Positions 1,158 to 54,220 are shown, counted from the stretch's first letter. The stretch is 64,000 bases of DNA from Candidatus Poseidoniaceae archaeon (GCA_949372645.1 CASIAP010000005.1:157094-221093), one strand, 5' to 3'. The notes: generated by a model not told the origin, from the sequence alone. Translations and numbers: made by a program.

Positions 1158-4094
1158 ATGCGCCGAAATGCTATTTTGATTTGTTTTATTATGTTGGTTG
1201 GAACTCTTCCTCTTGCCCTTATTGGTATCAGTTCAGCCACTGAACACACTGTTTCAGTTAGTGCGGATGGGTACGAACACTTCGCTCTAGGGCAGATTAA
1301 CCAAGGCCAGGAATTGTCCATTGATTACGATCTAAGTGGAAACGTCGACGTTCTTTTATTGAATCAAGAACAGTTCAACCAATGGAGCACAGGAGGTACC
1401 CAACACATCGAATCTGGTTCGGATTACGACGATAAGAAGGATGACTACATATTCACTATTGATGAATCAAACACCTACCACCTCATCTTTGATAACAGTC
1501 AGCAGGCAGGTGAAGCATCCAGCTCTGGGTCGACAATTACTGGAACTGCCACAACATCGCTTTTGTCACCAGAACCAGACCGACTTCGCACTCGTACGTG
1601 GGCAGGAGTGGGGTCGTCGATCGATATTCTCGCACCCGAAGTGGAAATTGGTGAAATCATCTCCATTTCAGTTCACTGCGACATAGGTTTGACAAGTGGT
1701 GATGACTTAGACTTCTTACTCAGAGATTCAGTGCAAAAGAATGCTCCTGGAGCGATTACAGATTGGAATCGCCATGCTTCTTTCGAAGATACCTGTTCCT
1801 ATTCTTGGGAATATGAGACAAATAAAGAATCCAGTTGGTTCCTCACCGTTGATAATTCAGATACTGCTCGTACTGACGGTTTAAGCAATGGAGTTATGGT
1901 GGATGTTGTCATTGAAGTGCGAAGTTTAATCCCCTTGATTGAGGTTGTTGATACCTCACGTATGATTGATTCTGGAGACTATTACCGTGTTGATATAGGG
2001 TATATGCCGGCAGATGGTGTTGCTTACATTGATTTTTCATTCTGGAGTCATGGAACTGCAATGTTAACTGATGATTTGGATGTTCTCGTAATGGAAAGTA
2101 CTGAAGCGAATCTATACGAAAGTGGAAACGATGCTACTGCCCTAGGCCATACGACTATACTCGATGCAACCAGCCAATCATGGTCGTACCAATTCGCAGA
2201 ATCAGGAACTTACAGCGTAATTTTCGATAACACTGACGAACCCGATGGAGGTGCTGGTGATGGCTCCGATATACAAGTGGAAATCGGGGTCACCTCATTG
2301 ACTATTCCTTCACTTTTTGGCAACATATGGACTGGATGGCACCAATCACGCCATTACACCGATGAAGGAGGTCATATAGCCCTTGATCTTGGAACCTTAT
2401 CCAGTGGCGAGGAGGTTTACTATTACATTGATGGGAGTAATGAGGGTGGAAGTATTTTCTCTGCCAAAGAATTTGATATTATGTTCATGACAAAGGTAAA
2501 TTATGATTTGTATGTCAATGGTTCTTCCACTTTCACTGCTCTTCAAGATGGAACAAATTACAAAGAAGGTGGAATTATTCCCACCATAGAAAATATTTCT
2601 ATCGTTTCAAATGACCACTATATGCTGGTCATGGATGCCGCAGATGGGCCAAATTCAAACGCTGCAGATGAAAATGGAGATTGGATCTGGGAATTCATCG
2701 TTCTATCAGATGGTGGACCAATTGAAAACCTCCAATCTAAAGACGGACGATACCTTCAGAGCCTATCCATTGATTCAATTTCAGCTCCTGACAACGATAA
2801 TGATGGTGTGAGGAACGGACTGGATGAATGCCAGTCAACATCAAGCGGAATGTCTGTTGATGCTACTGGCTGTTCAAATTCTGAATCGGATTCGGATGGT
2901 GATGGAGTTACAAATAACAACGATCAATGTCCCAATTCTGCCCATGGAGTTTCTGTTGATACCACCGGATGCGTTGTGGTTGTTGTGGCTGATGAAGACG
3001 GCGATGGCGTCAATGATGAAGACGACCAATGTGCAAATACGCCTGCTGGAACAAGCGTAGATACCAACGGATGCGCTTCCTCACAACTCGATAGCGATAA
3101 CGATGGAGTTACAGATAACAACGACCAATGTGCAAATACACCTGCTGGAACAAGCGTAGATACTAACGGATGCGCTTCCTCACAACTCGATAGCGATAAC
3201 GATGGAGTTACAGATAACAACGACCAATGTGCAAATACACCTGCTGGAACAAGCGTAGATACCAACGGATGCGCTGTTGTAGCTACTGATTCTGACGGCG
3301 ATGGCGTCAATGATGAAGACGACCAATGTGCAAATACGCCTGCTGGAACAAGCGTAGATACCAACGGATGCGCTTCCTCACAACTCGATAGCGATAACGA
3401 TGGAGTTACAGATAACAACGACCAATGTGCAAATACACCTGCTGGAACAAGCGTAGATACCAACGGATGCGCTGTTGTAGCTACTGATTCTGACGGCGAT
3501 GGCGTCAATGATGAAGACGACCAATGTGCAAATACACCTGCTGGAACAAGCGTAGATACCAACGGATGCGCTGTTGTAGCTACTGATTCTGACGGCGATG
3601 GCGTCAATGATGAAGACGACCAATGTGCAAATACGCCTGCTGGAACAAGCGTAGATACCAACGGATGCGCTGTTGTAGCTACTGATTCTGACGGTGATGG
3701 CGTCAATGATGAAGACGACCAATGTGCAAATACACCTGCTGGAACAAGCGTAGATACCAACGGATGCGCTGTTGTAGCTACTGATTCTGACGGCGATGGC
3801 GTCAATGATACAACCGATCAATGTTCGAACACACCAACTGGAGCAAACGCAGATTCAACCGGTTGCTCAGCATCTCAGAAAGACGGCGATGGCGACGGTG
3901 TAATGAACGATATCGACGAATGTCTCAACACACCTGCTGGAGAGAGTGTTCTGGCAAATGGTTGTGTTGAGGGGATTTCACCGAACCTCGATAACGATGA
4001 AAACTCTGATGATTCAGACAAAGGCCTTCCCGGTTTCACTGCAGCACTCGCAACATTAGCGTTCATGGGTGCAGCGTTGATTCGCCGTGATTGA
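1158..4094 (+). CDS. Secreted surface protein with thrombospondin type 3-like Ca-binding repeats and PGF-CTERM-like anchor
   Basis: Signal peptide; DSDGDGVNDEDDQC...NGC repeats; C-terminus LPGF-TM helix-RRD. Confidence 0.85.
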   Translation: MRRNAILICFIMLVGTLPLALIGISSATEHTVSVSADGYEHFALGQINQGQELSIDYDLSGNVDVLLLNQEQFNQWSTGGTQHIESGSDYDDKKDDYIFTIDESNTYHLIFDNSQQAGEASSSGSTITGTATTSLLSPEPDRLRTRTWAGVGSSIDILAPEVEIGEIISISVHCDIGLTSGDDLDFLLRDSVQKNAPGAITDWNRHASFEDTCSYSWEYETNKESSWFLTVDNSDTARTDGLSNGVMVDVVIEVRSLIPLIEVVDTSRMIDSGDYYRVDIGYMPADGVAYIDFSFWSHGTAMLTDDLDVLVMESTEANLYESGNDATALGHTTILDATSQSWSYQFAESGTYSVIFDNTDEPDGGAGDGSDIQVEIGVTSLTIPSLFGNIWTGWHQSRHYTDEGGHIALDLGTLSSGEEVYYYIDGSNEGGSIFSAKEFDIMFMTKVNYDLYVNGSSTFTALQDGTNYKEGGIIPTIENISIVSNDHYMLVMDAADGPNSNAADENGDWIWEFIVLSDGGPIENLQSKDGRYLQSLSIDSISAPDNDNDGVRNGLDECQSTSSGMSVDATGCSNSESDSDGDGVTNNNDQCPNSAHGVSVDTTGCVVVVVADEDGDGVNDEDDQCANTPAGTSVDTNGCASSQLDSDNDGVTDNNDQCANTPAGTSVDTNGCASSQLDSDNDGVTDNNDQCANTPAGTSVDTNGCAVVATDSDGDGVNDEDDQCANTPAGTSVDTNGCASSQLDSDNDGVTDNNDQCANTPAGTSVDTNGCAVVATDSDGDGVNDEDDQCANTPAGTSVDTNGCAVVATDSDGDGVNDEDDQCANTPAGTSVDTNGCAVVATDSDGDGVNDEDDQCANTPAGTSVDTNGCAVVATDSDGDGVNDTTDQCSNTPTGANADSTGCSASQKDGDGDGVMNDIDECLNTPAGESVLANGCVEGISPNLDNDENSDDSDKGLPGFTAALATLAFMGAALIRRD
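2990..3808 (+). repeat. 99-bp (33-aa) tandem repeat, about 8 near-identical copies in two variants
   Basis: gaccaatgtgcaaatac(a/g)cctgctggaacaagcgtagatac recurs every 99 bp. Confidence 0.95.
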
Positions 4095-4934: not shown

Positions 4935-7900
4935 CTAAGCCTTCTTTGGAGTTACTACGGATTCCAATAATTGCCATTCGTGTTGTGAATCGTCACGCCA
5001 CCAGTATGTTTTATCTGAATCATGATACCATTGTCGGCCATTTTCATCGACCATGGTCGCTTCTGTGTTCATTGTTGGACCTTTCTCCACTTCAACTTCT
5101 TCAGCTTCTTCAGCTTCTTCAGCTTCTTCAACTTCTTCAACTTCTTCAGCTTCTTCAACTTCTTCAGCTTCTTTAGTTTCTTCAGTTTCTTCAGTTTCTT
5201 CAGTTTCTTCAGTTTCTTCAGCTTCTTCAGCTTCTTGCTCCGATTCCACTAGAGGAGTTTGATCGATCTTATCATAGAATTTTGCTTGCGATTTTTCTTT
5301 TACAACTCCAGGTTCAAATTTCTTTGAATCCTCTTCAAGTTTGTACTTGAAGTGACGTTCAGTTTCTTCCAACTTATCATCTGCTTCTGCTCGAATTCTT
5401 TCAAGCCTCATACCGTGGTGTGGACCAATCAACCGGAACATGAGTGCCCTTTCATAACGTTCAGCAACTGCTGAAATATCTTCTCTCGATTTAGCAGTTT
5501 CAATTTCTTCCAAGAATCTTCGCGTTCTTTTGTTGCGTGTCAAGAGACTAAAGGAGAGGAATAAAATTAATGGAATACCTGTCATCATACCAATGATATC
5601 CCATGCACCGAGGCTGATTTCGGTGCCAGGGATGATGATTTCAAAGCCTTCGATTGGGTTCGATTGATCATTGTATGGATCACTATCTTTCAATTCTTCT
5701 TCTTTATCAGAATAGCCATCATTGTCATCATCTTCGTCTAATTCATCCGGAATTGTATCGCCATCAAAGTCTGACAAAGTTTTCAGCGTAAAAGACAAAC
5801 TATAGTAGCCACCATCGTTGCTTGCATTGATGGTTATGTTCATGAGAGCGTTTATTTCACTCGGTCTACCAAACATTGAACCTGATGTGCTATCAAAGAC
5901 CAAGCCATTCGGTAATTGATAACCTTGTTCGAATTCAAGAACCCATAAATCTACAACGACGTCTGAAGAGATAAATGGAGCAAATTTAGCCATTTCCACC
6001 TGTTCGGTCAGCGAAAGTGTTTCGTATGGTAATGTAAATCTCGGTGCTTGATTCAAAATTTGAATCGAAATGAGTTGTTGGTACGTTCCCCCGCTATTTT
6101 CTGCAGTAATCGTGTACTGGATTTCGGGAGAAACGATTAATGGAACTCCTTGAATCATACCTCTTTTCTCATCAAAAAACATACCTGATGGCAATGAAGG
6201 AGTAATGCTGTAGGATGCTATATTTCCACCTGAACTTGTAACCTGAATCGCGTTAAATGGTGAATTTTTATACAAAATGTGTTTCGAAGAAGAGAAGCTA
6301 AATTGTGGTTCAGGCTCTAAAACCTCTAGGTAAAACAACCATTGTGAAGTCCCTCCCTCACTCATAGCCGTAACTGTAAATAATTCAGAGGTTGAGTTGA
6401 CCAAAGGAGTGCCGTAAATCAATCCATTCTCAAGAAAGAGACCATCTGGTAATTCTGGAAGAATAGTCCATTTTTCAACCATTCCGCCTGAGTTAATGAT
6501 CATAAGTTCTTCAATAAGGCTGTCTCGAGTCGCAAGAATTGAATTCGAAGGATTCTCAATCATTGGTGCTGGTTCAAGTATCTGAATGCTGAAAGTCATT
6601 TCATCAAACCCTCCAGTATTTTCTCCTTTTACGGTGTAATTCACTGCAGACATGTTGACGGTTGGGGTTCCGAATATCTGCCCGTTAAGGAAGACTAGAC
6701 CGTCCGGTAATTGAGGTGAAATTGTCCACAAGGCGATATTTCCACCAATGTTACCAATCACAATATTTGACAACGTCTGTTCTCTTTCGACAACGTATTG
6801 AGATTGAAGAGCGATAAATTGAGGTGTTGGTTCGAGCACTGTGATGTTCAAATCTATGAACGATACACCCCCGGAGTTATTTCCATAAATCCGGTATGTT
6901 ATAATCGTCTGATTATTGGAAGCTTGGCCTGAAATTATACCGTTACTGAATGACAATCCTGCGGGTAATGATGGATTGATGGACCATTGTGAAACCACTC
7001 CATCCGTCACAAGTGGAGAATATTCAATGTATTGACCCGTACGAGTGAGTTCGATCTCATTTACGGGATAGGTGATACTTGCCGCAGGCTCATACACCAC
7101 CAACAATGAATATGAGGTTACAGCACCGAACTGGTTTGAATAAGTGATGATGTAACTCTGCTGTGTGCTGTTTACAGTAGGTGTCCCACTGATTACTCCA
7201 GTCTGCGCGTGAATGCTTAGGCCATCGGGCAGAGGTGGTTGAATCGAAAATTCCGCATTACTTATTCCGCTCAACACTGGAATAATCGGCGATGAAGTTT
7301 GGTTTCGTATCGATTCCATGAATGTCAATGGATAAGAATATGATGCGCTAACAGCTAAGGTTTGTTGAACATAGTGAGTGCCGGCAAGGTTCGTGATGCT
7401 CATCTCAAGAACGATGCTGCCAGAACCGTTTTCGGGAGCACCGTAAATGGTTCCTGCCAAAGCATGATCAACGTGGAGTGTGATTCCCCTGTATTCAGTG
7501 AATTCTGAAACTACAGTGGCATTTATCCAAGGAATTTGGCCTGCTTGATTGTCTCCTGTACACATAATCGACCAGCGAATTGTGCTCATACAGAGGTGTT
7601 GATCTCCAATGACAATCAATGATGAACCTATTGAATTTTGATTTTCAACTTGAACTGGCGACGTCAATATCATACTTGTGGTCGAGAACATTCCTGAACG
7701 TGATTGACCCCAGCACCAGATCTCATTTTGTAAACTAACAATACATGATTGCTCAGCTCCAGCCACAATTCGGGATGCTCCAGACCAAGCAGAATTTTGA
7801 ATGATTCTTGGTTCAATCTTCCCAAGCAGCGTACCGTCTCCCAATTGACCTTGAGCATTTCTTCCCCAACATGCCGGTTGTGAGCCATTGAGAACAGCGC

Positions 7901-10900
7901 ACGAATGGTCGCCTCCTGCACTAACGGATAGTACTGAGAAACCAAGTGGCAAATTAACTAAAGTTGGTTGCAATTTATTGTCAATTGTTCCATCTCCCAG
8001 TTGACCAAAAGAATTCCTACCCCAACAATAGAGTTCTCCAGAGTAAGTGGTTGAGCATGTATGTGCCTTTCCGAGGTCGATTTGAGTAAAAAACATCGAT
8101 TGATTGGTGTGAACGTCAACTGGAATAAAGGAATTCTCGTATGTTGCATCACCCAGTTGTCCATCTTCATTTGAACCCCAACACAGAGCACTACCATTCA
8201 CAAGAATTCCACATGTGTGGGTATCGCCGACACTGACTCCAACAAAACCATATTCACCGGTATGCGATACTAATCCAGGTGAAGTGACCGCAAAATTCCC
8301 ATTGCATCCAGTGGTATACGAACCATAGACGCACCTGAAGCCTCGGCCGAGTTGACCGAAATCATTCTGACCCCAGCATTCTACTGCTCCGGCAGAGGTT
8401 ACAACACAGGTGTGGTGCTTACCTACTGCAACATCCACTGGCCACTGAAGTGACGAGAGGGTTATGTTCACCATCGTATTTATTGAATTCGTGTTACCTT
8501 GCCCAAGTTGACCCATGTCATTTGAACCCCAACAGACAACCCGATATTCTACTGTAATTGTACAAATATTGGAGCCTGAACTTGAAACCGTTTTGCTTGA
8601 GTTATACTCAGAAAGATAGATTCCAGCCACAGATGAGCCATTCCACTCCCAATTCTCTGGATATCCTGCGTCCCCTGATGGGCTTAAAGGAGCAAATCCA
8701 AAACCATTGTAAAGATCATAGACAGAGCTTGAATAACTCACGTTTGGAAGTATTTCGTCAACATTCAATGTGAAGTTGAGCCTGTCTTCACCTGTTGAAT
8801 TCCATAATCGAATTGAATAATGTGTTGATGGCCATGGAATCGCTGGAGTTCCGCTAATGTTCGCCGTTTGGAAATCAAAGATTAGACCGTCTGGCAAAGC
8901 TGGTTCAATACTCAAGTTTCGTTCATAGATGTTGATTGAAGGCAAATAAGCGCTCATCGTGGAGTTTCTGGTTAATTGAATCGAGTTGTATGAATTTTCA
9001 ATTCCAGATAGCACTTCAAAATCGATATCCCAACTCGAGAAACCAAAACTGTTGTTGGCCCAAATGGTATGGACTGATGATGGATAAACAACACTCGGAA
9101 TGCCCGTAATACGTCCTGTTGAATTGTCGAAATCCAAACCGATTGGAAGTGTTGGACTAATTTGGAAAGCTGCAACAGCACCTCCAGTTAGGCTGGCGAT
9201 AGGGTGAATGCTTTGGAAGCCTCTTCGATAGGAAATATCAAGTACATTATATTCGAGAATCGGAGGAATCTCTGAAATTACAATTGATATTACGGATGAA
9301 TCGAGCCCGTATTGATTGGATACTGTAACTGTATATTGAGAGACCGGTTGGTCAAAAAGAGGAGTGCCCCAAATTGAACCATTGGAGGGTTCAAAGAACA
9401 GCCCAACAGGCAAACTTGGAGAAATGGAAATAGAAGTATATGCACCTCCTGTAATGATTGGTGAACGTGAAACCATGGTTTGGTTTCTGGTTAACACAAG
9501 CATATTATTGCCATAATCGTAGGCAGGAACGACTCGTAATGACATCAGATTGGAATGAGACCCAATACTGCTGTTTGTCCAAACGGTATAATCTGTCCAT
9601 GATGAGAATGAGCTTGGAACTCCATAAAGAGCTCCAATATTTGTAGATGAAGAGAAATTGAGGCCTTGAGGAAGGGGTGGGTGTGATTCAACTGATTGGA
9701 CATTTCCACCGAATTGGTTTGCCTCAATCGTCGTGATATTGAAACCTCGGACGAAAGTCTCATTATTCGTATCGTAAGTAACCAGTGGAGCAATGTCGCC
9801 GATTGAAATTGTAATTTCGATGGTGTCTGAACCAGCAAGGTTCGACACATGAATCGAAAAGTTTTGCGAGGTTTGATTGTTTAATGGAGCCCCCCAAATT
9901 GTACCGTTTGATGGCTCAAAATTCAATCCTTGCGGAAGAGATGGAGAGATCGATGCAGAATATGCACCTCCTGTAATGATTGGTGAACGTGAAACCATGG
10001 TTTGGTTTCTGGTTAACACAAGCATATTATTGCCATAATCGTAGGCAGGAACGACGGATATTTCTAAATTAAATACACTCGAACCAACGGTGTTGCCACC
10101 ATAAATGGTGTATATTTGAGTGGCCGTTACTTGTGAAGCCGTTCCAGATAACGTTCCAAATGGTTTTTCAACAAATCCTGAGACCATGACCGGAATCGTA
10201 AATGGTATTGTTGAACCGATGCCAAGTTGGCCTTGAGAATTCTGACCCCAGCATTTCAAAGTGCCAACATCAAGCACTGCACAAGTATGATAGTTACCTG
10301 AACTCACCGAAACGGCTGTTCTTCCTGTTCCCAGAGTAACGGTCTGTGACGTATTTTGTTGTATTGTTGAACCGATGCCAAGTTGGCCTTGAGAATTCTG
10401 ACCCCAGCATTTCAAACTGCCATCATCAAGCACTGCACAAGTATGAGCGCCACCTAAACTCACCGATACGGCTGTTCTTCCTGTTCCCAAGTCAACGGTT
10501 TGTGGCGTAGTTTGTTGTGTTGTTGAACCGATGCCAAGTTGGCCATAGTAATTCTGACCCCAGCATTTCAAACTGCCATCATCAAGCACTGCACAAGTAT
10601 GATAGGAACCTAAACTCACCGAAACGGCTGTTCTTCCTGTTCCCAAGTCAACGGTTTGTGGCGTAGTTTGGGATGTTGTTGAACCGATGCCAAGTTGGCC
10701 TTGAGAATTCTGACCCCAGCATTTCAAACTGCCATCATCAAGCACTGCACAAGTGTGATAGGTACCTAAACTCACCGAAACGGCTGTTCTTCCTGTTCCC
10801 AAGTCAACGGTTTGTGGCGTAGTTTGTTGTGTTGTTGAACCGATGCCAAGTTGGCCTAGAGAATTCCGACCCCAGCATTTCAAACTGCCATCATCAAGCA

Positions 10901-13900
10901 CTGCACAAGTATGAGATGGAACCTAAACTCACCGAAACGGCTGTTCTTCCTGTTCCCAAGTCAACGGTTTGTGGCGTAGTTTGTTGTGTTGTTGAACCGA
11001 TGCCAAGTTGGCCATAGTTATTGTGACCCCAGCATTTCAAAGTGCCATCATCAAGCACTGCACAAGTATGAGCGCCACCTAAACTCACCGATACGGCTGT
11101 TCTTCCTGTTCCCAAGTCAACGGTTTGTGGCGTAGTTTGGGTTGTTGTTGAACCGATACCAAGTTCGCCATAGTAATTGTAACCCCAGCATTTCAAACTG
11201 CCATCATCAAGCACTGCACAAGTGTGAGAGGTACCTAAACTCACAATAGCTGCAGTCTGAGTACGGTTTTCTAGACTCAATCCTATGGGAAGTTGCGGAC
11301 TAATGCTTATTGTATCCACATTTCCGCCATCGAGGTTTGAGAGATTGAGATTCCCGATTGACCTGTTTCGAATAAAAGTATAACTTGAACTCGGATATGA
11401 GATATTTGCAAGAATATCGAGAACTCTAATCTCCAAAATTACTTCATCCCAACCAGAGGTGTTCTCTATAAAAATGGTGTGCTCTGTTAAGGTTTGAGGA
11501 ACTGTAGGCGTGCCCCATATCGTTCCATTATTTACCCCAATATACATTCCGAGAGGTAAAGATGGATGAACTGAAAATTGATAGGGGCCTCCAGAAAGAG
11601 TGGGGGAAATGTTGAGGTTTGAGGTATTTCTTACCAAGTTCAGTTGAGTGTTCGGATAGTCTGCCGCAATTCCAACTGTTATTGTAATATTTACATCATC
11701 CGAGCCGCCACTGTTGTTGGTGTACAACCGGTGAATTGTCATTGGTTGAGAGGCGAGGGGGGCTCCAGTTAACGCCCCCATTGAAAATGCCCCCACCAAT
11801 GCTGAAGAATGGGTGAAACGAACCGGTTGAGGGGTTGTGGCTGTTTGTATGGTCGAATTCAACCCGAGTTTTTGACCAGAGTTGTCCCCCCAACACCAAA
11901 TTCCTCCCAGTTCATCAACAACACAAGTGCCATCTGATCCAGCAAAAACATCCACTGCATTCATCCAAGAAGGAATGATTGTTACATTCACTGGACTCAA
12001 TCGATTGATCGTAGTTCCATCGCCAAGTTGCCCATGGGAATTATCACCCCAACACATTATTCCACCCTCATCCACCATAGCACAGGTGTGTGAATAACCT
12101 ACTGAAACATTGCTGTACGAGGCCCAAGACGGTGAGTCAACTATTTGAGGTGACAATTGATTTACTGAATATCCATTGCCGATTTGACCGCTGGTGCCAG
12201 TCCCCCAACACAGAATACTGCCATCGTTCCGAACTGCACAAGTATGTTTTTGCCCTGTGTCAAAATCCAAGGCAGTATATCCTGTTCCAAGATCGACCAT
12301 GACTGGAATGGTCGTTTCCGTACCTGTAGCTGATTGACCAGTCCCAATAGCATAATTTTGATTATTTCCCCAGCAATATAAGGATTCATAGATGGTTAAT
12401 ATACAAAAGTGAGAATCTCCACTGTCTAATTGAGTTATTTGCCCATAGCTATGTTGAGATATTGAATAGTCACTCGAACCTTGGCAGAACAAATCATTCA
12501 CGGCATCCAGAACACAGATTTCATTCATCGAAGTTGCCACTTGAACAATTGGAACAGTACTGCTAAACGTTGCTTCGATAAATTGAAGAGAATCGTTTGT
12601 TCCAATCGAACCGTTTATTTGACCGTAATTATGTTCACCCATGCATTTAACATCGCTGTTTGAATTCACTACACAAACATTTGTTGGACTCAAAGACACA
12701 TCGATTATCGCAGATTGATTATAGGGAAAGAAAGTATCAGGTGAATGAGTGAAGTCATCGCCCCAGCAATTCAAACCCGAGGAAACGATTGAGCAAACAC
12801 CATTCGAGTTGAGAAGAAGGTTCTCATTGTTCCCATTATTTGTCAATAAACCAACAATTGAAGGGTCTAAACTAGAAGAGGTGATTGAACCTCCGATGTT
12901 CGAGAGATCATTCGATTGATTTCTAAATCCTTTGATGAAGTGAAGTGAAGTGGATGTTGTAGATATCTCAGGTATATTGTCGACAATTTCTAATGAAAGG
13001 GGAACCTCCCAATATCCCGAGTAATTCTGTGTAGAAACTGTATATGTTTTGTTAAAGGTGACTTCAGTTGGAGTTCCCGAAATCACTGCGTTTGAGGAAT
13101 TGAATTCCATGCCCTGTGGAAGTTGAGGGGAAATCGAAAGAGTGCATGCTTCACAGCTGAATCCTGTTGGTGTAATCGACGTGGACTGGTTTATCGTAAA
13201 AACAAAAGAATCTGCTGAATACGTAATCGTGGGAGATATGTTGACCTGTATACGATGGAAATTAGTGGAGGATGAGGTATTATACCATACGTCGAGATTG
13301 AGAAGTCCAATCTCTTTAGGTATACCATGCCAAGAATTCGAGTCTGTCACGAACAGTGGAAAATAGGGATTGTAAGTGAAGAAAAAAATACCCTCTATTT
13401 GTGGAACATATACGTAAGATAATGAACCGATGCCAAGTTGGCCATAAGAATTGTGACCCCAGCATTTCCTACTGCCATCATCAAGCACTGCACAAGTATG
13501 ACCGTAACCTAAACTCACCGAAACGGCTGTTCTTCCTGTTCCCAAGTCAACGGTTTGTGGCGTAGTTTGGGATGTTGTTGAACCGAGGCCAAGTTGGCCT
13601 TGAGAATTCTTACCCCAGCATTTCAAACTGCCATCATCAAGCACTGCACAAGTATGATATTGACCTAAACTCACCGATACGGCTGTTCTTCCTGTTCCCA
13701 GAGTAACGTTCTGTGGCGTAGTTTGTGTTGTTGTTGAACCGAGACCAAGTTGCCCATGGGAATTATCACCCCAGCATTTCAAACTGCCATCATCAAGCAC
13801 TGCACAAGTATGATATTGACCTAAACTCACCGAAACGGCTGTTCTTCCTGTTCCCAGAGTAACGGTCTGTGGCGTAGTTTGTTGTGTTGTTGAACCGATA

Positions 13901-15825
13901 CCAAGTTCGCCATAGTAATTGTAACCCCAGCATTTCAAACTGCCATCATCAAGCACTGCACAAGTATGACCGTAACCTAAACTCACCGAAACGGCTGTTC
14001 TTCCTGTTCCCAAGTCAACGGTTTGTGGCGTAGTTTGTTGTGTTGTTGAACCGATACCAAGTTGGCCTAGAGAATTCCGACCCCAGCATTTCAAACTGCC
14101 ATCATCAAGCACTGCACAAGTATGAGAGGAACCTGAACTCACCGAAACGGCTGTTCTTCCTGTTCCCAAGTCAACGGTTTGTGGCGTAGTTTGTTGTGTT
14201 GTTGAACCGATGCCAAGTTGGCCATAGTTATTGTGACCCCAGCATTTCAAAGTGCCATCATCAAGCACTGCACAAGTATGAGCGCCACCTAAACTCACCG
14301 ATACGGCTGTTCTTCCTGTTCCCAAGTCAACGGTTTGTGGCGTAGTTTGTTGTGTTGTTGAACCGATGCCAAGTTGGCCATAGTAATTCTGACCCCAGCA
14401 TTTCAAACTGCCATCATCAAGCACTGCACAAGTATGATATTGACCTAAGCTGACACTTTGAATTGGCGTGGGGATTGCTCTACCTAATAGTACAGGTAAC
14501 ACCATCGCGTTTGAGATACTACTACCAAGTTGGCCATAAGAATTCTGACCCCAGCATTTCAAAGTGCCATCATCAAGCACTGCACAAGTATTATAGGTAC
14601 CTAAACTCACCAAAACGGCTGTTCTTCCTGTCCCCAGAGTAACGGTTTGTGGCGTAGTTTGTGTTGTTGTTGAACCGAGGCCAAGTTGGCTTTGAGAATT
14701 GTGACCCCAGCATTTCAAAGTGCCATCATCAAGCACTGCACAAGTATGAGCGCCACCTAAACTCACCGATACGGCTGTTCTTCCTGTTCCCAAGTCAACG
14801 GTTTGTGGCGTAGTTTGTTGTGTTGTTGAACCGATGCCAAGTTGGCCATAGTAATTCTGACCCCAGCATTTCAAACTGCCATCATCAAGCACTGCACAAG
14901 TATGACCGTAACCTAAACTCACCGAAACGGCTGTTCTTCCTGTTCCCAAGTCAACGGTTTGTGGCGTAGTTTGGGATGTTGTTGAACCGATGCCAAGTTG
15001 GCCTTGAGAATTCTGACCCCAGCATTTCAAACTGCCATCATCAAGCACTGCACAAGTATGATATTGACCTAAACTCACCGATACGGCTGTTCTTCCTGTT
15101 CCCAGAGTAACGGTCTGTGGCGTATTTTGGTTTGTTGTTGAACCGAGGCCAAGTTGGCCAAAGACATTGTAACCCCAGCATTTCAGAGTGCCATCATCAA
15201 GCACTGCACAAGTATGAGAGGTACCTAAACTCACCGAAACGGCTGTTCTTCCTGTTCCCAAGTCAACGGTCTGTGGCGTAGTTTGTTGTGTTGTTGAACC
15301 GATGCCAAGTTGGCCATAATTATTCCAACCCCAGCATCTCAAACTGCCATCATCAAGCACTGCACAAGTATGATATTGACCTAAACTCACCGATACGGCT
15401 GTTCTTCCTGTTCCCAAGTCAACGGTCTGTGGCGTAGTTTGGGTTGTTGTTGAACCGATGCCAAGTTGGCCATAGTAATTGTAACCCCAGCATTTCAAAG
15501 ATGTATCAAGTAAGATCAAGCACATACTATTACCGACCGATACTTTTCCATCGGCGTTTATTTCGTCTGGAGTAAAATACATTCCTTCTACATTTGAATG
15601 AATGTCATACGAACCAGAGGAAGTATTCCCGGTTAACGACGTTAGAATCAACGCTTTGTGTCCTGCTGTCAAATTAACAGTAGCATTTGAAGATACTGTT
15701 TGGATTGTAACTTCGGGTTCAAGGGTGAACTCATCCCATGATTGCATCGTAGCACTCATACTGATGGTGGCCATCAAGAACGACAGCAGAATGGCTTGGT
15801 ACTTGCTACGAGCCTTGTCCTCCAT
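4935..15825 (-). CDS. Giant (about 3630 aa) RCC1-repeat / putative Ig-domain surface protein, split by a 1-nt frameshift near 10917
   Basis: ORFs 10894-15825 and 4935-10901 join within one RCC1 repeat; signal peptide, HTCAVLDDG.LKCWG.N..GQLG repeats, LP.GL.F....G.I.GTP Ig-like units, DxDGD motif, C-terminal TM and acidic tail. Confidence 0.85.
5088..5238 (-). repeat. 9-bp minisatellite encoding (EEA/EET/EEV)n
   Basis: ttcttcagc / ttcttcagt / ttcttcaac units in tandem. Confidence 0.9.
10205..15500 (-). repeat. Three blocks of 7 RCC1 repeats with a 156-bp (52-aa) period (about 10205-11245, 13425-14450, 14525-15500)
   Basis: ccatcatcaagcactgcacaagt recurs every 156 bp within blocks. Confidence 0.95.
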
Positions 15826-15936
15826 GACTTCACTAATATGTGATAGTAATAAAGAATTAGGCTTGCTTTCAATCTAATTTTATTACAAAAACCATGATAA
15901 AAAAGGATTTCAGTCAATTCAAGCCCTACTCTTTAA

Positions 15937-15998
15937 CTTGATTCAAAGAGAAAAGAACATTACCTGTCTACAAAGAAGTTTACGCATAAATCGAAATT
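15937..15998. repeat. 62-bp direct repeat, right copy
   Basis: cttgattcaaagagaaaagaacattacctgtctacaaagaagtttacgcataaatcgaaatt. Confidence 0.95.
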
Positions 15999-16022
15999 GA
16001 AGAAGCAGGAAACGGTTGAGTA

Positions 16023-17882
16023 CTAAATCAACCTTGTTTGGCGGGATGTCTTCTTGGTTTCTACAGAAGCATTCATGTCCCAAAGAACCTCGACACTTTG
16101 CCATATCGCATGGTCGATTTTCATCGCCAATGAGCCTTGAAGAGTAGATGAGTTTTGCGAATCGTGTAAAATTGAAACAGTTTCGTCTTGAGGTAATGCG
16201 TCAATTGAAGGAATCCCCATTCGTAGTTTTTCCCTCTATATCTGCAACTGTACTGATTTGTTGAGATTCACACATCGAGGCCACACGCTGTTCCATCCAA
16301 TGCGGGAACAAACCGTCTGCAAGTGCATCGAGGTCATGCTCCGTCGGCGAGAGTTCTCGCTCTTTGTAGAAAGAATGTGAACCGTTAACCCATGATCATG
16401 GAGCACACGGGCAATACAGGAGGAGAGAATACCGTTCTCAACAACGTAGTGAGTTGCTTGAATGAGGCTTTGGTTTCGATGAATGTGTGTTCCGTATCTG
16501 TCGACATCAAGTCGAGAGGCATGTGTGACAACATCTCGTTTACGCACTACGCCCATCACCTGCATTGAAGGGAAAAAGGGACGGTCAAATAATCCATGAC
16601 ACCATTGAATGCCAACTACAGAGGAAGGGTCCCTTCCATCAAGAGCATACTTGTCATTGAGCATCTGGCCAATATACAGCGAATGCTCCAAAGATTCAGT
16701 CCACAGTGGAATCGCTTTACCCCAGGTCATTCGTAAATTATTGTGTAATTCGCCGTGTCGAAGCAATGAATGTTGACAAAGATTCCATAATTCAAGAGGC
16801 GAAGAAGCGTATTCCATCTCATGGTCTTTCAACTGAACAACTCGGGGGTCATCAGAGGTTTCTCTCCACGATTGTAATGCCCATTCTGGAAGGTTCGATG
16901 AATCATAAGGGTCTGTTGCGGCATAGATGTGGTGCCACGGATGTTCTCGAAAAATCAGTAATTCGTCAAGATACTTTTCCGCCGATTTCGTGCCAACTGC
17001 TGCCGCTTCTCTGGCCACCCGCATGGGGGAGATGAAACCATAGTGAAAAGCCGCAGAGAGACGAGATACGCCGGTTGGGTCGGCAGCGTTATTTCGCCGC
17101 TTAGCATAGCCATTGAGCCCTTTATCATAGAACTCTTGCCATTTGTGAAGGGCTGCTTTCTCCCCCCCGCGTTCATGCCACACGGGGTGAACTGACGGAT
17201 CGATAGAACATTCACGTAACAAACCAAACCGGTTCTTGAGTTGCTTTACGCGCTCAACCACATTGACGGGCTCAAAGGGCAACGGGCCAGTATAGGGTTC
17301 TGGGTTGGCCTCGCAAACCGGCCACGAGGCTTGCAGCCTCTGCTTCCTCAGTCGCTTTGTTGCGTCTCGGAACTTGTACGGCCGGTCTACCGACTTGCCA
17401 AACATGGGCATTGGAATCACACAGTGGCAATCAACATCGAACACGGGGCAAGCCGCTGAGGCTGCAATCGTCTCAACCCAATCGGTCCATGGTGGTAAAG
17501 GGAACAGAGATCGGTGATGATGCAACTTGCAGACTGGCTAAACGACTTCATGACGGAGGGCCGATGGCCTTCTCGTGCTACGTGAAGCACATACCGAAGC
17601 CCCGCCTTTTCTGCATCCATCATCCATGTCAACTGCTGCATCAAGCAACATGTTGTGATGGCGAAGAGATGCGTGTGGATATCGCTCATCAATCCCATGA
17701 TAGATGAGTAAGGGCAAATCATGTTGAGCTGCTATATGCCTACCGACTTCAATTGCCGGGTTCTCATGAAGTCGAAACGAAGACTTCAGCCATACGACCA
17801 CGGGCCCAGAGCCTTGAGGTTCAGAAATGCTGTTGCGGTGACGGGTTCGCTCTGACAAATGCGTAGGCCAGTCGTCCATCAT
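16023..17882 (-). pseudogene. Class II-like CPD photolyase with C-terminal extension, interrupted by three frameshifts (about 17610, 17505, 16355); pseudogene or sequencing error
   Basis: VVVWLKSSFRLHENPA; SRLSAAFHYGFISP; LHNNLRMTWGK...LNDKYALDGRDP...FDRP; fragments join across frames to about 620 aa. Confidence 0.8.
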
Positions 17883-17978: not shown

Positions 17979-19472
17979 TCATCCATTTCTTCTTTTTCTG
18001 CTCCCATGCACCTCATAGACGAGGATTGAGCGCTTTTTTACATCGGGCTTACTTTTGGCTGAATATGACTTGCTCACGCCTTCTTTACGAGATGTTTTTT
18101 CATCCACTATAGGTGAAGGGTAATCCGTTCCAATTTCACAAGCGTACAACTCTTGCTGTTCTTGAGTCATCAGCCATGGTTCATGGATAAATTCTGCTGG
18201 GACTGATGTCAACTCCGGTACCCATTCTCTGATAAAATTCCCTTCCGGATCTTGGTCCTCTGATTGCTTGCGAACAGAATATGCGCGTACGGAATTAATG
18301 CCTGTCACGCCTGATTGCATGTGCACTTGAGACCAATGAATACCGGGTTCATAGTCAAGGAAAAGACGTGCCAGGTGCATTCCAGTGTCCTGCCACGGCA
18401 GCCACAGCGTGTAGGATGCAACCGACTGAAGCATCGCCCTCATTCTGAAATTTATCCAGCCTGTTGCCGTAAGCGAGCGCATGCATGCATCAAAAAATGG
18501 CCAACCAGTTTGACCATTCGCCCATGCTTGATATCGCCCTTCATCGTGACTTCGTTCGAGATGCCCATCAAGTTCAGGATTGATTGCAATCTCATCCATT
18601 GTCGTTTCAAATTCAAGTCTCTGAATGAAATGACAGTGCCATGCAAGTCTGCTTTGGAATGAACTCAGACTGGATGTCCAACCTCGGTTTTCTGCCGAAC
18701 GCGGGTTGACTCTCACCTGCTTTTGTTTTCTTCTGCTGTAGTGCAAGATTTGGCGAATCGTGATGCAGCCTGTACTGATGTATGGTGATAATCGAGAACA
18801 GGCTTGCCTTCCTAAAATGGGACTTGACATACCAGATCGATATTTTCTACCTCTCTCATCCAAGAATGAAAACAGTACAGATATCGCTGCTTTTTCTCCA
18901 GCGATTGGCCGCTCCAATAATTCTCGAGGTTTGACTCCGATCTCCTTCGCATCGGGAATACGGTCCGATTTCAAATCGTCAGGTGATTGAATTGAAACTG
19001 GCGTACTGATTAATTCACTCTCGACTCGCGCATCTCTTTGACCCTTCCAATTATCGCGTGATTGCAAACCTCTGATGACCCCATTACTCGGGTATTCGGT
19101 AAAGGAAGCTCCATTTTCTTTACACCATTTGGTCACTGATTTGTCACGTCCCCATGACCAATTGAGCCCTGTTTCTTCATGACTGAACACGGAAGCAATC
19201 TCATATTCTTCATGGAGTTCTGACAATGTATTCACAACATTTCCAAAGTTAAACAACAACTTTCCACCAAGATGTTCGAGCGATTTACCGAGCGCTCGAG
19301 CACAATCCAACTCCCATTGAATATGTATTTCAGAAACATCCTTTCGATTCAACCTTTCAGGCTCAATATTGAATAAACAAATAACGGGATGTGGGCTTTT
19401 ACATGCTTCGGTAAGTGCATGATTGTCCGAGACTCTGAGGTCCCGTTTGAACCAGACCACTGAGACAGGCAT
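17979..19472 (-). CDS. Cryptochrome/photolyase family protein
   Basis: VVWFKRDLRVSDN, CSRLSPYI, GQTGWPFFDACMR, WINFRMRAM, LFLDYEPGIHW, QDPEGNFIREWVPEL. Confidence 0.95.
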   Translation of the reverse strand: MPVSVVWFKRDLRVSDNHALTEACKSPHPVICLFNIEPERLNRKDVSEIHIQWELDCARALGKSLEHLGGKLLFNFGNVVNTLSELHEEYEIASVFSHEETGLNWSWGRDKSVTKWCKENGASFTEYPSNGVIRGLQSRDNWKGQRDARVESELISTPVSIQSPDDLKSDRIPDAKEIGVKPRELLERPIAGEKAAISVLFSFLDERGRKYRSGMSSPILGRQACSRLSPYISTGCITIRQILHYSRRKQKQVRVNPRSAENRGWTSSLSSFQSRLAWHCHFIQRLEFETTMDEIAINPELDGHLERSHDEGRYQAWANGQTGWPFFDACMRSLTATGWINFRMRAMLQSVASYTLWLPWQDTGMHLARLFLDYEPGIHWSQVHMQSGVTGINSVRAYSVRKQSEDQDPEGNFIREWVPELTSVPAEFIHEPWLMTQEQQELYACEIGTDYPSPIVDEKTSRKEGVSKSYSAKSKPDVKKRSILVYEVHGSRKRRNG

Positions 19473-19619: not shown

Positions 19620-22600
19620 TTAACTTTCCCACTTAGTCCAAACTCCATTTGTTCCTGATTGTTTGTACCACGTTAGGCCATTGAACTGAACCCACTCATA
19701 ACCGTGTTGATCTTGTTGTCCAACCATCTCTAAAGGGGGTGTTGAGACTGGAGTTTCCGACTGAACAAGTGGAATTTCTGGAAGATAATTTTGTTCAACT
19801 GCATTGGATTTAATCACTGGAGTCGTAAAAGTTTCAGCCTCTATTTGTTGGTTTAAGTTGTTTGGGGCGACGTAATGGCTGCTTTCAATTGGCTGTTGGT
19901 AACTTTTCTGTGGAAGTGAATCACCATTTCCTTTTCTCCTAAGAATTACAAAGACTGCGCCGGAAATAATCAAAACGAATACTCCAATGATAGAAGAGAG
20001 AATAATGACTGAAAAGCCACTACTTGATGCAATATCATCCGCATCTGTTACTATTTCTTGGTCATCACTCGAACCTGCATTTTGATTATCTTCATTATCA
20101 GTTATATTTCCTTGGTTATCATCGTCGTTGGTTTCATTATCAATATTATTATTATCATCTGTCAAATTCTGCAGAGCATTGAGCATTACAGTGTGAGAAT
20201 ATTCTGCTATACCGCTAGACACAATAATATCGACACTGTGGGTTCCTTCGGGTATGTTCTCCCAAGTGAGAACGCAATTCTGGTCTATAATCTGACCGGT
20301 TATTGGATAACCCAGTCTACAATCGTATGTAGTTGCATTTTCCAAAGAAACCAACACATTTACTACAGCTGTTTCTTTCTCAATTCCTTCCCATGGGGTT
20401 GAAGTTGCGATAATTCTTACAATTGGGACATCCTGAGGGAAAACTGTAATCGTGGGATTGATTGAAGACGATTCTCCTCTCTCGTCAGATACTTCGATAA
20501 TAAATGTGTACGAGCCAGCGTTTAATGGAGTCCAGGAGATTCTCCATGTATCAACATCTAAGACCATTCCATTCGGAGAATTCAATAGTTGAATGGAAAG
20601 ATTATCACCATCAATATCAGTAGCAGTTATGCCAAATTCGATATATCCTCCTTCTTGTGCAACGATACCAACAATTTCATCAATGATTGGAGGGTTATTT
20701 GGTTGGTCATTTACAGTTAGGTTGTAGGAGTATCTTAACGACACAATCCAATCGGATTCAGCAACTATAGCCACTGAATGGACGCCCACATCTGCTGAAG
20801 TGACTGTCATTGACAACTCTCCAGTTAGTGCATCGATAACCAAGCCATCCGGACCTTCCTCGATTGAATAGGTCAACAAAGCAGGAAGATACCATCCGCG
20901 ATTAAGTGATTCTATCCAGTGAACAGCTTCGAAAGTGGTTGAGTAGGTTTCTCCGGCTACTGCTGATTTTGACGGTTCTGTGTAAATCAACGGTTCATAA
21001 TCGATAAACGCCCATAGCCAATAACCTCCACCTTGGCCCTCAATAATAATCTCATATGTCCCGCCTTCAACATCAGCGAATATGAAATAATTATCTGAAT
21101 TTGGATAAATTATATTCCCGCTGGGGCCTACTGCCCATGCGGTCAAAGAATATGCGCCTGACAGATTGAAGAGTTCATCGGCTGTTCCCAATGTGATAAC
21201 AACTGGTAAACCTGGTAAAATATCAACTGCCCAATAATCCAAATCATCTATTACTCCAATCTCTGAAAAAATTATATCGCCAAATGGAAGCATCGGTGAT
21301 TCTATCGATTCTTCTACGAAAACTGAATAATTCGCTCTGCCCGAAAAAGCTTCAATGGTCAAATAGACTTGACCCATCCCCATTTCGTCAATTGAAAGAA
21401 TGCCGCCTTCAGTAGCGTTAAATTCATCGATCACATAGATCGCTTGCGTTATATCATCAGGCACCCATACTGCTGAAATGGAGGCTTCAATCGAACGATC
21501 AAAATATATGAAAATATCTTGAGCCTCTCCATCAAATACTTCCCAACTAAGTATGTCTAACGAGTCTTCTTGACTATCGATCCACCCATAATGAGAACCT
21601 TCAGTAAGAGGATTTGCTTCAACATAATCATCATCTGGAAGGTGATAACTAGGCAATTCCCAGATGTGGATTTGATAATTCCCGTTGATGATGTGCGGAT
21701 TTTCATATCCATACAAAGTAACACCCACTTCGTGATAACCTGAGTTGCTCGGAGTTACAACTGCCTCAAGAATATTCGAATTTTGTGCAGACTCAGCCAT
21801 CCACCAATTTGTGTAAGTTAAATCTGCCACGTCCATGAAGACGGAGAGAGAATCGTTGTTGTTTTCAGAAGAGATAAAGTCACCAAGTAATTCAACTGTG
21901 ACTGCATATGTAATCCCCGAATACAGGTAGGCCTCATAACATGATGAAGAGTAATCTGGCCCTTGACTAAGGTAAGGGACTAGTTGGTCTGAGACAAGAT
22001 CTACATCCACAATCAACGTTGGCGGGTACAGCAAATCGTCTCTGTATTCGTATTCCCAGCATGCAGGGTTATCGTCATTTACGTATGCCGATTCAACGCC
22101 AATCCAAGTTTGTGCTTGATAATTCCAATTCTCAACCTTTATGCTGAATACATCAGAATGACTTGTTGAAGTGGTTATGGACCATGAATCATCAACGAAT
22201 GAGGAAGTAAACGTTCCGAGTATTGTAGTTCCTGCCTCATCGTAAAGAGTTACGCCATCTATTTCTTCACCGGTAAATTCGATACTAAACAATCGTCCTG
22301 GTTCTGCCCTTATTGAATACCACTTATGCCCGTATGCATCAACGTAAAATGGTGAGGCTCCATCTTGACCAATGTAAATTGGTGTAGCATTTTCAGGTGT
22401 TTCTTGACTAGTAAATTCTTGTAAAGACCAATTTACAGACTGCAAAATTAGCAATTCCAAATCATAGCGGTTTACTATTGAGGCTGGATCAAAAGCAAAA
22501 TAAGATAACCGGCCAGTATTTTCACCATCATCATCGATAATCATTCTAGAAATTCCTACACTTTCGTAGGTCCCTGAAAATTCATTGTATGTCTCAAATA

Positions 22601-25565: not shown

Positions 25566-25657
25566 CGGCATTTGTTTATTCTGTACATAGATATACTTAA
25601 CCCACCAAATTCTATGTTGCAGGGTAAATACATTAGCGTGTTGAGGACAATAGCAAA

Positions 25658-25860
25658 GGACAATCCGAACTGATAGAATTAGAGTCCCGCTCCCAGGAGA
25701 GAGGGCTGTGAACGAAGTCGAACAAACTCTCGACTCGTGCGGACGAGCACGACTAAAATCTGATGCTATCGAAGTGGTCCCCGCTCCCATGAGTGAGGAT
25801 GTGAATGGCGGCGAATCTCCTCACGATAGAGCGTGGACGAACCGAATGGCTACGATTAGA
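25658..25860 (-). repeat. tRNA-linked degenerate tandem repeats (about 2.3 copies of 84-93 bp); full units end in the tRNA-Tyr 3' end
   Basis: gtccc(c)gctccca at 25684, 25777 and 25861 (the tRNA); intervening sequences align with each other. Confidence 0.8.
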
Positions 25861-54164: not shown

Positions 54165-54220
54165 AGAGACTACTCCAGACAAGGGTCTATTGGGTAGCAT
54201 TTAGCAATATGCTTGATGTA

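Follow-up and report, generated by a model that had tools for sequence, protein, structure and literature searches.

Why should 21 repeat units of one archaeal gene be nearly identical in their DNA, synonymous positions included, and differ from one another almost entirely at a handful of codons? The question is raised by a 64,000-nucleotide (nt) stretch of a Candidatus Poseidoniaceae archaeon genome (GCA_949372645.1, CASIAP010000005.1:157094-221093), hereafter the window, whose minus strand holds at 4935-15825 a gene of about 3,630 codons for a predicted giant surface protein with RCC1-type propellers. We estimate a probability of roughly 0.6 for the reading that the propeller scaffold undergoes concerted evolution while diversifying selection acts on a Tyr/Gln/Ser-rich, putative ligand-binding face of what would be a Poseidoniales adhesin. 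An initial annotation, made from the sequence of the window alone, had proposed a variable binding surface generated by recombination, and the results below bear on most of its claims.

Three blocks of seven near-identical RCC1 units

Tandem Repeats Finder reported a period of 156 nt at 10208-11244 (6.6 copies, 92% matches) and at 13423-15499 (13.3 copies, 86% matches). Anchoring on the CWG motif defined in-frame units of 52 codons, or 156 nt, and yielded 21 units in three blocks of exactly seven, just as the initial annotation had described them:

14467-15558, minus strand: block 1, homogenised RCC1 propeller, units 1-7 (CWG-anchored units)
13375-14466, minus strand: block 2, homogenised RCC1 propeller, units 8-14 (CWG-anchored units; the block modelled with AlphaFold2)
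10164-11256, minus strand: block 3, homogenised RCC1 propeller, units 15-21 (CWG-anchored units)

Pairwise nucleotide identity among the 21 units averaged 0.905 (range 0.833-1.0) and rose to 0.959 when six variable codons were left out. Mean amino acid (aa) identity was 85.5% over the 210 unit pairs, with divergent block ends masked; in block 1 the divergent ends span 20 codons each, at the start of unit 1 and at the end of unit 7. Blades are thus near-identical within each propeller, as in the beta-propellers that are classed as highly repetitive. When a unit was searched by blastn against the 1.8-Mb genome, every match (21/21) lay inside the host gene.

Variation is concentrated in six codons

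Amino acid entropy peaked at three places in the unit: at codons 9 and 10 (site A; 2.47 and 1.86 bits), at codons 26, 28 and 29 (site B; 2.39, 1.62 and 1.75 bits) and at codon 39 (site C; 1.62 bits), with all remaining codons at or below 0.88 bits. The variation had been assigned to sites A and B in the initial annotation, and there the entropy peaks agree with it, although the third site had been missed. Its eight site-A alleles (QY, TS, YG, GA, TY, SS, SY and NY), its 12 site-B alleles and every pairing that it listed were recovered.

The six variable codons carry 24 of the 39 extra amino acid states, a concentration with a binomial P of 1.3e-13 for a codon set that was picked after inspection. 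Nonsynonymous difference (pN) reached 0.51 at these codons, against a synonymous difference (pS) of 0.070 and a pN of 0.031 in the scaffold. The check that had been suggested over the 21 repeats, per-site entropy and dN/dS (computed here as pN and pS), thus gives peaks at the variable codons, and the constancy of the scaffold does extend to synonymous positions. For codons 6-33 alone, the ratio of pN at sites A and B to scaffold pS was 8.7. Among the 21 unit pairs that are only 1-6 nt apart, 67 of the 101 differences fell in the six codons, which make up 11.5% of the length, and site A was the sole difference between units 5 and 19, 5 and 8, and 8 and 19. Many alleles have 2-3 nt changed per codon while the adjoining 150 nt are identical. 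The best explanation for new alleles is point mutation together with copying between units, without a dedicated mutator.

The composition of the variable residues is as paratope-like as had been proposed, with Tyr at 27%, Gln at 24% and Ser at 17%. Tyr accounts for 33 of the 121 variable residues and for none of the 890 scaffold residues, from which Phe and Met are likewise missing. Charged residues number four among the 121. Trp occurs once among all variable positions and in none of the 20 scored site-A pairs, which are also free of Arg.

The variable sites are predicted to share one face of the propeller

An AlphaFold2 model of block 2, built from a 60-sequence alignment, had a predicted local distance difference test score (pLDDT) of 93.8 and a predicted template modelling score (pTM) of 0.91, with 28 strands arranged as seven four-stranded blades in a closed ring. 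Within each unit, the modelled strands S1 to S4 span positions 2-7, 11-16, 21-25 and 40-45. Because the strands run as an antiparallel meander, the loops that join S1 to S2 (positions 8-10, with site A) and S3 to S4 (positions 26-39, with sites B and C) would exit on the same side; the opposite side carries an Asp-Asp-Gly-Ser loop and the loop at positions 46-52.

The best solved matches to the model were UVR8, RPGR, HERC2 and RCC1, and BLIP-II was not among the 32 PDB sequences matched at E<=1e-10. UVR8 superposed on block 2 with a TM-score of 0.89-0.96, a root-mean-square deviation of 1.4-1.5 A and 33-34% identity, and the sequence alignment covered 353 residues with a single one-residue gap. 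With UVR8 numbering anchored by the mutant chains W285A and D96N/D107N, UVR8 residues W233/R234, W285/R286, W337/R338 and E182 aligned to unit positions 9-10 (site A), W94, D96 and R146 to positions 26 and 28 (site B), and D107 to position 39. Passages of PMC5091643 describe inter-monomer salt bridges from R286 to D96 and D107, a pairing of R146 with E182, and the placement of R234, R286 and R338 beside the triad tryptophans. The three variable sites thus occupy the columns that build a one-face protein-protein interface in the closest solved homologue. Modelled strand order and UVR8 equivalence together support the placement of sites A and B on one propeller face, as had been predicted, and place site C on it as well.

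The scaffold is homogenised and DNA is exchanged between units

The uniformity of the scaffold is a case of concerted evolution, by conversion or unequal exchange. All 21 units shared the same best foreign unit, L003:14801, a blade in the third propeller of orthologue L003, at 0.67-0.85 nucleotide identity, and each of them had a closer counterpart than that blade among the other units of the window gene (0.74-1.00). Block 3 combines stretches of blocks 1 and 2 as a mosaic, in register: its blades 2-3 match blades 2-3 of block 2 over 375 nt with at most two mismatches, and its blades 4-5 differ from blades 4-5 of block 1 by five and three differences. Scaffold markers also fail the four-gamete test, as exemplified by codon 44 against a 4-nt compound difference at codons 47-48. 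Since a 4-nt compound difference cannot be a recurrent mutation, the failure reflects exchange, and together with the mosaic structure of block 3 it shows that DNA has been exchanged between units.

Orthologues hold diverged propellers at the same places, which indicates that existing propellers were overwritten rather than newly amplified. A common best foreign blade would fit an origin of all units from one source blade; the position of the blocks at the places of older propellers, and the mosaic, fit conversion better. The combinatorial shuffling by recombination that had been proposed is therefore borne out in part, by mosaic units and by the four-gamete failure of the scaffold, but not strictly for the site-A and site-B alleles, among which there is no strict four-gamete violation: the graph that joins site-A to site-B alleles (18 distinct pairs, 20 units) has 18 edges, 20 nodes and no cycle, so that the A/B pairings are also compatible with stepwise mutation.

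The units belong to a predicted membrane-anchored protein with five propellers

Besides the three blocks, the following features were placed in the gene:

4935-15825, minus strand: giant surface-protein gene, in two open reading frames (ORFs) of the ORF list, 10894-15825 (1643 aa; ORF A) and 4935-10901 (1988 aa; ORF B)
15742-15825, minus strand: signal-like segment at the N-terminus, with basic residues ahead of a hydrophobic stretch (read from the translation)
13015-13242, minus strand: He_PIG (putative immunoglobulin, Ig) domain between block 2 and D1 (Pfam PF05345, ORF A residues 862-937)
11791-12828, minus strand: D1, diverged RCC1-like propeller, unhomogenised, limits approximate (CWG-anchored units, ORF A residues 1020-1311)
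10917, minus strand: frame-breaking surplus base in site A of unit 17, between its codons 9 and 10 (comparison with unit 10)
7617-8600, minus strand: D2, diverged RCC1-like propeller, limits approximate (CWG-anchored units, ORF B residues 790-1063; Pfam)
5538-5600, minus strand: sole strongly hydrophobic segment, a putative membrane anchor, followed by a basic cluster (hydropathy scan)
4935-5537, minus strand: acidic tail of about 200 aa with repeats rich in Glu, predicted to be cytoplasmic (Asp and Glu together account for 57 of the final 168 residues)

ORF B begins in the middle of an RCC1 repeat and carries unit 17 on in register. Pfam profiles for RCC1, RCC1_2, WD40_RLD and He_PIG matched both ORFs. 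ORF A gave E-values of 5e-186 for PF00415 (18 stretches), 1e-181 for PF13540 and 1.5e-223 for PF25390, and ORF B likewise had significant matches to RCC1-type profiles. When the gene is read through the indel, the order in the protein is a signal-like start, five RCC1-type propellers with He_PIG Ig-like domains between them, a hydrophobic segment and an acidic tail. The stretch between blocks 2 and 3 (11257-13374, 2.1 kb) is non-repeat and contains the He_PIG domain and the diverged propeller D1, which is kept in orthologues L001, L003 and L081. The single-base insertion at 10917, the 2.1-kb non-repeat stretch and the two diverged RCC1 propellers are additions to the initial annotation.

In a hydropathy scan with 19-residue windows and a mean Kyte-Doolittle value of at least 1.8, only 5538-5600 passed in either ORF. 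The protein contains 64 N-X-S/T sequons. No STAND NTPase (NACHT or NB-ARC) with an effector domain was present among the Pfam results, which gave only RCC1-type, He_PIG and sub-threshold matches. The signal-like start, the single C-terminal membrane segment followed by basic residues and the acidic tail point to a type-I membrane-anchored surface protein. Location at the cell surface, as had been suggested, is thus supported by these predicted features and by the He_PIG domains.

The variable sites recur across the family and the uniform scaffold is unusual

The nearest relatives of the repeat region were found in metagenome-assembled genomes of Poseidoniales (Marine Group II), at 65-73% identity, in agreement with the archaeal host that had been proposed. 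A family survey covered 65 other loci (828 units, from bacteria and archaea) and was anchored on CWG, since exact 156-nt spacing would have kept only five loci. Positions 10, 9, 26, 28 and 29 had the highest variability among positions 1-35, which independently corroborates sites A and B. Four or all five of these positions ranked within the locus's own top five at 39 of the 65 loci. The consensus of a 60-protein alignment is undefined at exactly these variable positions. Such family-wide variability makes the variable sites a property of prokaryotic RCC1 propellers.

The uniform scaffold, by contrast, is an unusual feature of the window gene. Across 129 loci with at least six units, core nucleotide identity had a median of means of 0.62 and a 95th percentile of 0.77, against 0.86 for the window, and only the marine contig L088 ranked above it (0.89). 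Scaffold pS formed a continuum, from 0.05-0.06 in L088 and the window, through 0.09-0.16 in L044, L083 and L084, to 0.47-0.73 in orthologues L001-L003, which have the same block architecture with diverged blades. Along this continuum, pN at sites A and B was 0.44-0.66 at all loci. An exact 45-nt scaffold pattern had 0 matches in the metagenome contigs, and a later protein scan found relatives of at most 75% identity.

Three further groups of arrays were observed in the course of the survey. A sister lineage, comprising the marine metagenome contigs L082 and L083 and the protein P0222, has at least four propellers per gene on another uniform scaffold, with Ala for Leu before site A and Ser-Leu for Asp-Leu near the unit end; its variation again falls at sites A and B, and its scaffold pS is 0.15-0.35. 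The 3.85-kb marine contig L088 carries, at 606-1725, seven RCC1 units of 53 residues on a different scaffold, with a scaffold pS of 0.052 that matches the uniformity of the window and a pN of 0.44 at sites A and B. Finally, the cultured betaproteobacterium Macromonas bipunctata DSM 12705 (L077, 6933-11000) has 51-residue RCC1 arrays on both strands, with five and six units on one and six on the other, inter-unit nucleotide identity up to 94-96%, and variation at sites A and B and a third site. It is a tractable organism.

The array is colinear in four assemblies

Searching at the protein level located the gene in three more assemblies, on contigs of 109,527, 21,126 and 10,091 nt (the window's own contig has 224,614 nt). 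Over the shared units, up to units 1-17, the four assemblies run colinear, and none of them shows the gain, loss or displacement of a unit; this speaks for a real array and against an artefact of assembly. As far as this is testable, allele order is thus invariant over units 1-17 in the three further assemblies, the very outcome that the initial annotation had named as speaking against its proposal. Between assemblies there were three substitutions in 3,403 aligned residues, two of them at variable columns (P=0.011).

With the extra base at 10917 removed, unit 17 is identical to unit 10 at 154 of 156 positions, and another assembly (21-kb contig, P0242) reads site A of unit 17 in frame, so that the split at 10917 is probably an error or specific to the strain. 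Each assembly nonetheless has frameshifts of its own, and the gene is split in all four. The five in-array frameshifts of the four assemblies (the one at 10917 included; proteins P0037, P0127, P0242, P0243 and P0244) all stand beside columns that vary between units, after positions 9, 9, 38, 38 and 33, and P0222, of the other lineage, is likewise cut short by a frameshift after position 9. This clustering could result from cross-mapping of reads between units during polishing or from real mixtures of alleles.

Short-read contigs from four runs of four studies, compared over 9000-16500, recovered the unique parts and broke inside the arrays, and none bridged one. The unique stretch between the blocks was present as one contig in runs of three studies, with 0, 8 and 18 differences. 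Cover of the bin that holds the frameshift (10757-11007) was near nil, at depths of 0.99, 0, 2.38 and 0.19 in the four runs.

Proposed concerted evolution with selected loops, and its alternatives

According to the favoured reading, the gene would encode a type-I membrane-anchored giant adhesin, whose ectodomain would hold five RCC1-type seven-bladed propellers between Ig-like He_PIG domains. The blade DNA of three propellers would have been homogenised in this lineage, the likely route being non-allelic gene conversion or unequal recombination, with exchange among the 21 units within and between blocks, often in register, and with a source blade like the one in the orthologue's third propeller. 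Selection would keep, and keep altering, positions 9, 10, 26, 28, 29 and 39 in each blade. The loops after strands 1 and 3 would then cover one face and give three different, asymmetric and uncharged Tyr/Gln/Ser-rich surfaces, which may bind a ligand outside the cell; the likeliest candidate would be a glycan or a protein carried by particles, by algae or by other cells.

Several points weigh against this reading. The contrast between pN and pS comes from paralogous units that exchange DNA and hence is not a formal site test, and the same figures would be expected if conversion homogenised the scaffold and selection did no more than preserve old loop alleles. The acyclic allele graph is compatible with stepwise mutation as well as with recombination between sites A and B. 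Three substitutions amount to very little variation in the population, and the assemblies may be non-independent samples. Solvent exposure of the variable residues is predicted from strand order and UVR8 homology. Finally, if the frameshift is taken as assembled, the gene may be a pseudogene in this strain.

The same anatomy might have arisen if one blade was recently amplified and its copies then decayed neutrally, with unconstrained loops and a scaffold under purifying selection, and with neither diversifying selection nor ongoing conversion. Highly repetitive propellers amplified from single blades are common, RCC1/BLIP-II forms making up 10% of the set according to parts of PMC9218822, and unit 1, with its divergent first half, is reminiscent of the distinct first strand reported there; the loop positions are, moreover, the most variable ones across the 65 loci of the family. 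Neutral decay would, however, bring loop pN close to scaffold pS (0.06-0.07), and not to the 0.51 observed. It also sits badly with alleles that are 2-3 nt per codon apart beside 150 identical nt, with three blocks that lie, 2.1 kb apart, at the sites of the orthologues' diverged propellers and so suggest overwriting, and with the in-register mosaic of block 3, which requires transfer between blocks. We consider such a history unlikely. Targeted hypermutation of the loop codons by a diversity-generating retroelement (DGR) or similar mutator would likewise confine variation to a few codons on a putative ligand-binding face, as in DGR targets, and Asn, Tyr and Ser are common at DGR variable sites. 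No match to RVT_1 (PF00078), the profile used for a DGR reverse transcriptase, was present in the genome, which is 83.7% complete (the search was positive in 3 of 14 control genomes), and blastn against the 1.8-Mb genome found no template repeat, there being no copy of a unit outside the host gene. Substitutions are not tied to adenine but involve all four bases at all codon positions, and alleles are identical across assemblies. With no reverse transcriptase in the 83.7%-complete genome, no template copy and no adenine bias, the retroelement was rejected, and a mutator of this kind is scarcely credible here.

Blades might also act as often-reshuffled cassettes, so that cells display different surfaces, for example in evading viruses. 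DNA does move between units, two of the three substitutions between assemblies are at variable columns, and the position of all five in-array frameshifts beside unit-variable columns could reflect mixed alleles in the reads, although cross-mapping during polishing explains that pattern equally. Set against this are the four assemblies, whose shared units are the same and identically ordered, with no polymorphism in unit number, and the 1.8-Mb genome, in which no recombinase, silent cassette or extra unit copy was found elsewhere. Reshuffling at the population level is, on this evidence, quite improbable. We regard it as very unlikely that the arrays were collapsed, expanded or rendered chimeric by assembly, with alleles derived from strain mixing. 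It is true that the contigs of all four short-read runs break in the arrays without bridging them, that the gene carries an indel, that a neighbouring photolyase-like gene is split too and that other assemblies have indels of their own. Nevertheless, each block has exactly seven units, the number that the fold needs, and block 2 closes into a ring at its high pLDDT; sites A and B are 63 nt apart within a unit and so lie inside any read; and the colinearity of three other assemblies with their few substitutions, as well as the recovery of the unique inter-block stretch in three studies, argue for a correct array.

A bolder idea, which we hold to be unlikely, is that the gene is a natural binder library, in which conversion keeps the RCC1 scaffold uniform while mutation and blade-to-blade copying quickly rewrite a restricted code of Tyr, Gln and Ser at about 120 loop positions in all, 5-6 in each blade. 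If this were true, planktonic archaea could retune their attachment targets or which viruses attach, the gene would be an archaeal, extracellular counterpart of the repeats of fungal NOD-like receptors (NLRs) or of lamprey variable receptors, and the indels at variable columns would be a trace of real allele mixtures in populations.

Genomic neighbourhood

The gene is flanked by chromosomal housekeeping genes, for FtsZ, histidyl-tRNA synthetase, an RNB-domain protein and a phosphoglucomutase/phosphomannomutase-family protein, and by genes for other giant surface proteins. Four more of the latter are predicted in the 64 kb, at 1158-4094, 19620-25790, 42716-48892 and 49005-54200. Thrombospondin type 3 repeats are present in one of them and PKD together with He_PIG domains in another, and the remaining two contain He_PIG arrays with matches, all sub-threshold, to the phage T4 gp5 C-terminal repeat; the gene for the thrombospondin-repeat protein (1158-4094) adjoins the putative adhesin gene. 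An intact photolyase gene lies at 17979-19472 (FAD_binding_7, E=4e-60), with a split photolyase-like gene alongside it at 16236-17882 on the minus strand. The latter consists of a 114-aa ORF (17538-17882) with a weak match to the N-terminal DNA_photolyase profile (E=3e-4, under the cut-off) and of a 429-aa ORF that comes next in a different frame and matches no Pfam profile; this split gene may be decayed or contain further indel errors.

Significance and comparison with known systems

Poseidoniales, which rank with the most abundant archaea in surface seawater, are uncultured, and their attachment to particles or algae has been inferred from genes alone. The gene described here is a concrete candidate for a recognition module, with three propellers on a near-invariant scaffold and about 40 variable residues on one predicted face of each. 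Since the scaffold is near the family consensus and the fold is modelled with high confidence, the propellers should be easy to express and to screen, for instance against glycans or algal surface proteins. The homogenisation acts across separate domains of one protein. In practical terms, such arrays draw indel errors at variable columns in assemblies and so split genes.

Adhesion genes of Poseidoniales have so far comprised those for flagella, thrombospondin and flotillin, and a particle-attached life has been inferred, as stated in passages of Rinke et al. (2018; PMC6461757), in which the word "propeller" did not occur. A full-text literature search for Poseidoniales and RCC1 together returned nothing, although supplementary tables may list archaeal RCC1 cases.

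Like UVR8, the plant UV-B photoreceptor, the window gene has a seven-bladed RCC1-like propeller with a 52-residue periodicity, and its variable columns are the UVR8 interface columns. Unlike UVR8, it is missing the Gly-Trp-Arg-His-Thr motif of the Trp triad, and its face is uncharged (4/121). UV-B sensing, which the UVR8 match and the photolyase neighbours had brought to mind, was rejected, since without the Trp motif there is no basis for it. Another parallel is offered by TAL-effector repeats, which are near-identical tandem repeats with a two-residue specificity site each. TAL-effector repeats wind into a superhelix by which DNA is read one base at a time; those of the window gene form closed rings, with two or three sites per repeat.

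Highly repetitive propellers occur in most propeller families, and those of the RCC1/BLIP-II type, 10% of the set, are mostly bacterial, according to passages of Pereira and Lupas (2022; PMC9218822). The propellers of the window resemble those described there in their RCC1/BLIP-II fold, in blades near-identical at the DNA level, in a distinct first strand and in a continuum from identical to diverged blades (here, pS of 0.05 to 0.73). They differ in being archaeal, and in that one scaffold is common to three separate propellers, with spacings of 0 and 2.1 kb, which replace older, diverged ones. The framing in those passages is one of amplification, and neither "gene conversion" nor "recombination" nor variable loop sites appeared in them.

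The repeats of fungal NLRs offer the fullest comparison. In parts of Dyrka et al. (2014; PMC4986451), the WD40, ANK and TPR repeats of these proteins (HET-E/HET-D/HNWD) are reported to have about 85% internal conservation and to undergo concerted evolution, with diversifying selection at a few positions of the binding surface. The window gene is like them in its internal amino acid identity (0.855), in the exchange of repeats within and between arrays, and in having a few hypervariable positions that are predicted to lie on one face. It is unlike them in that the repeats are of the RCC1 and not the WD40 type, in that no NACHT or NB-ARC NTPase is present among its Pfam matches, and in that the protein is predicted to be extracellular and membrane-anchored rather than cytoplasmic; nor was there polymorphism in repeat number or reshuffling in the four assemblies, a small sample of uncertain independence. 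Our reading would extend the pattern of uniform repeats and selected loops from fungal immune receptors to archaea and to the RCC1 family. The evolutionary pattern is a known one; the host and the protein family in which it occurs here are new.

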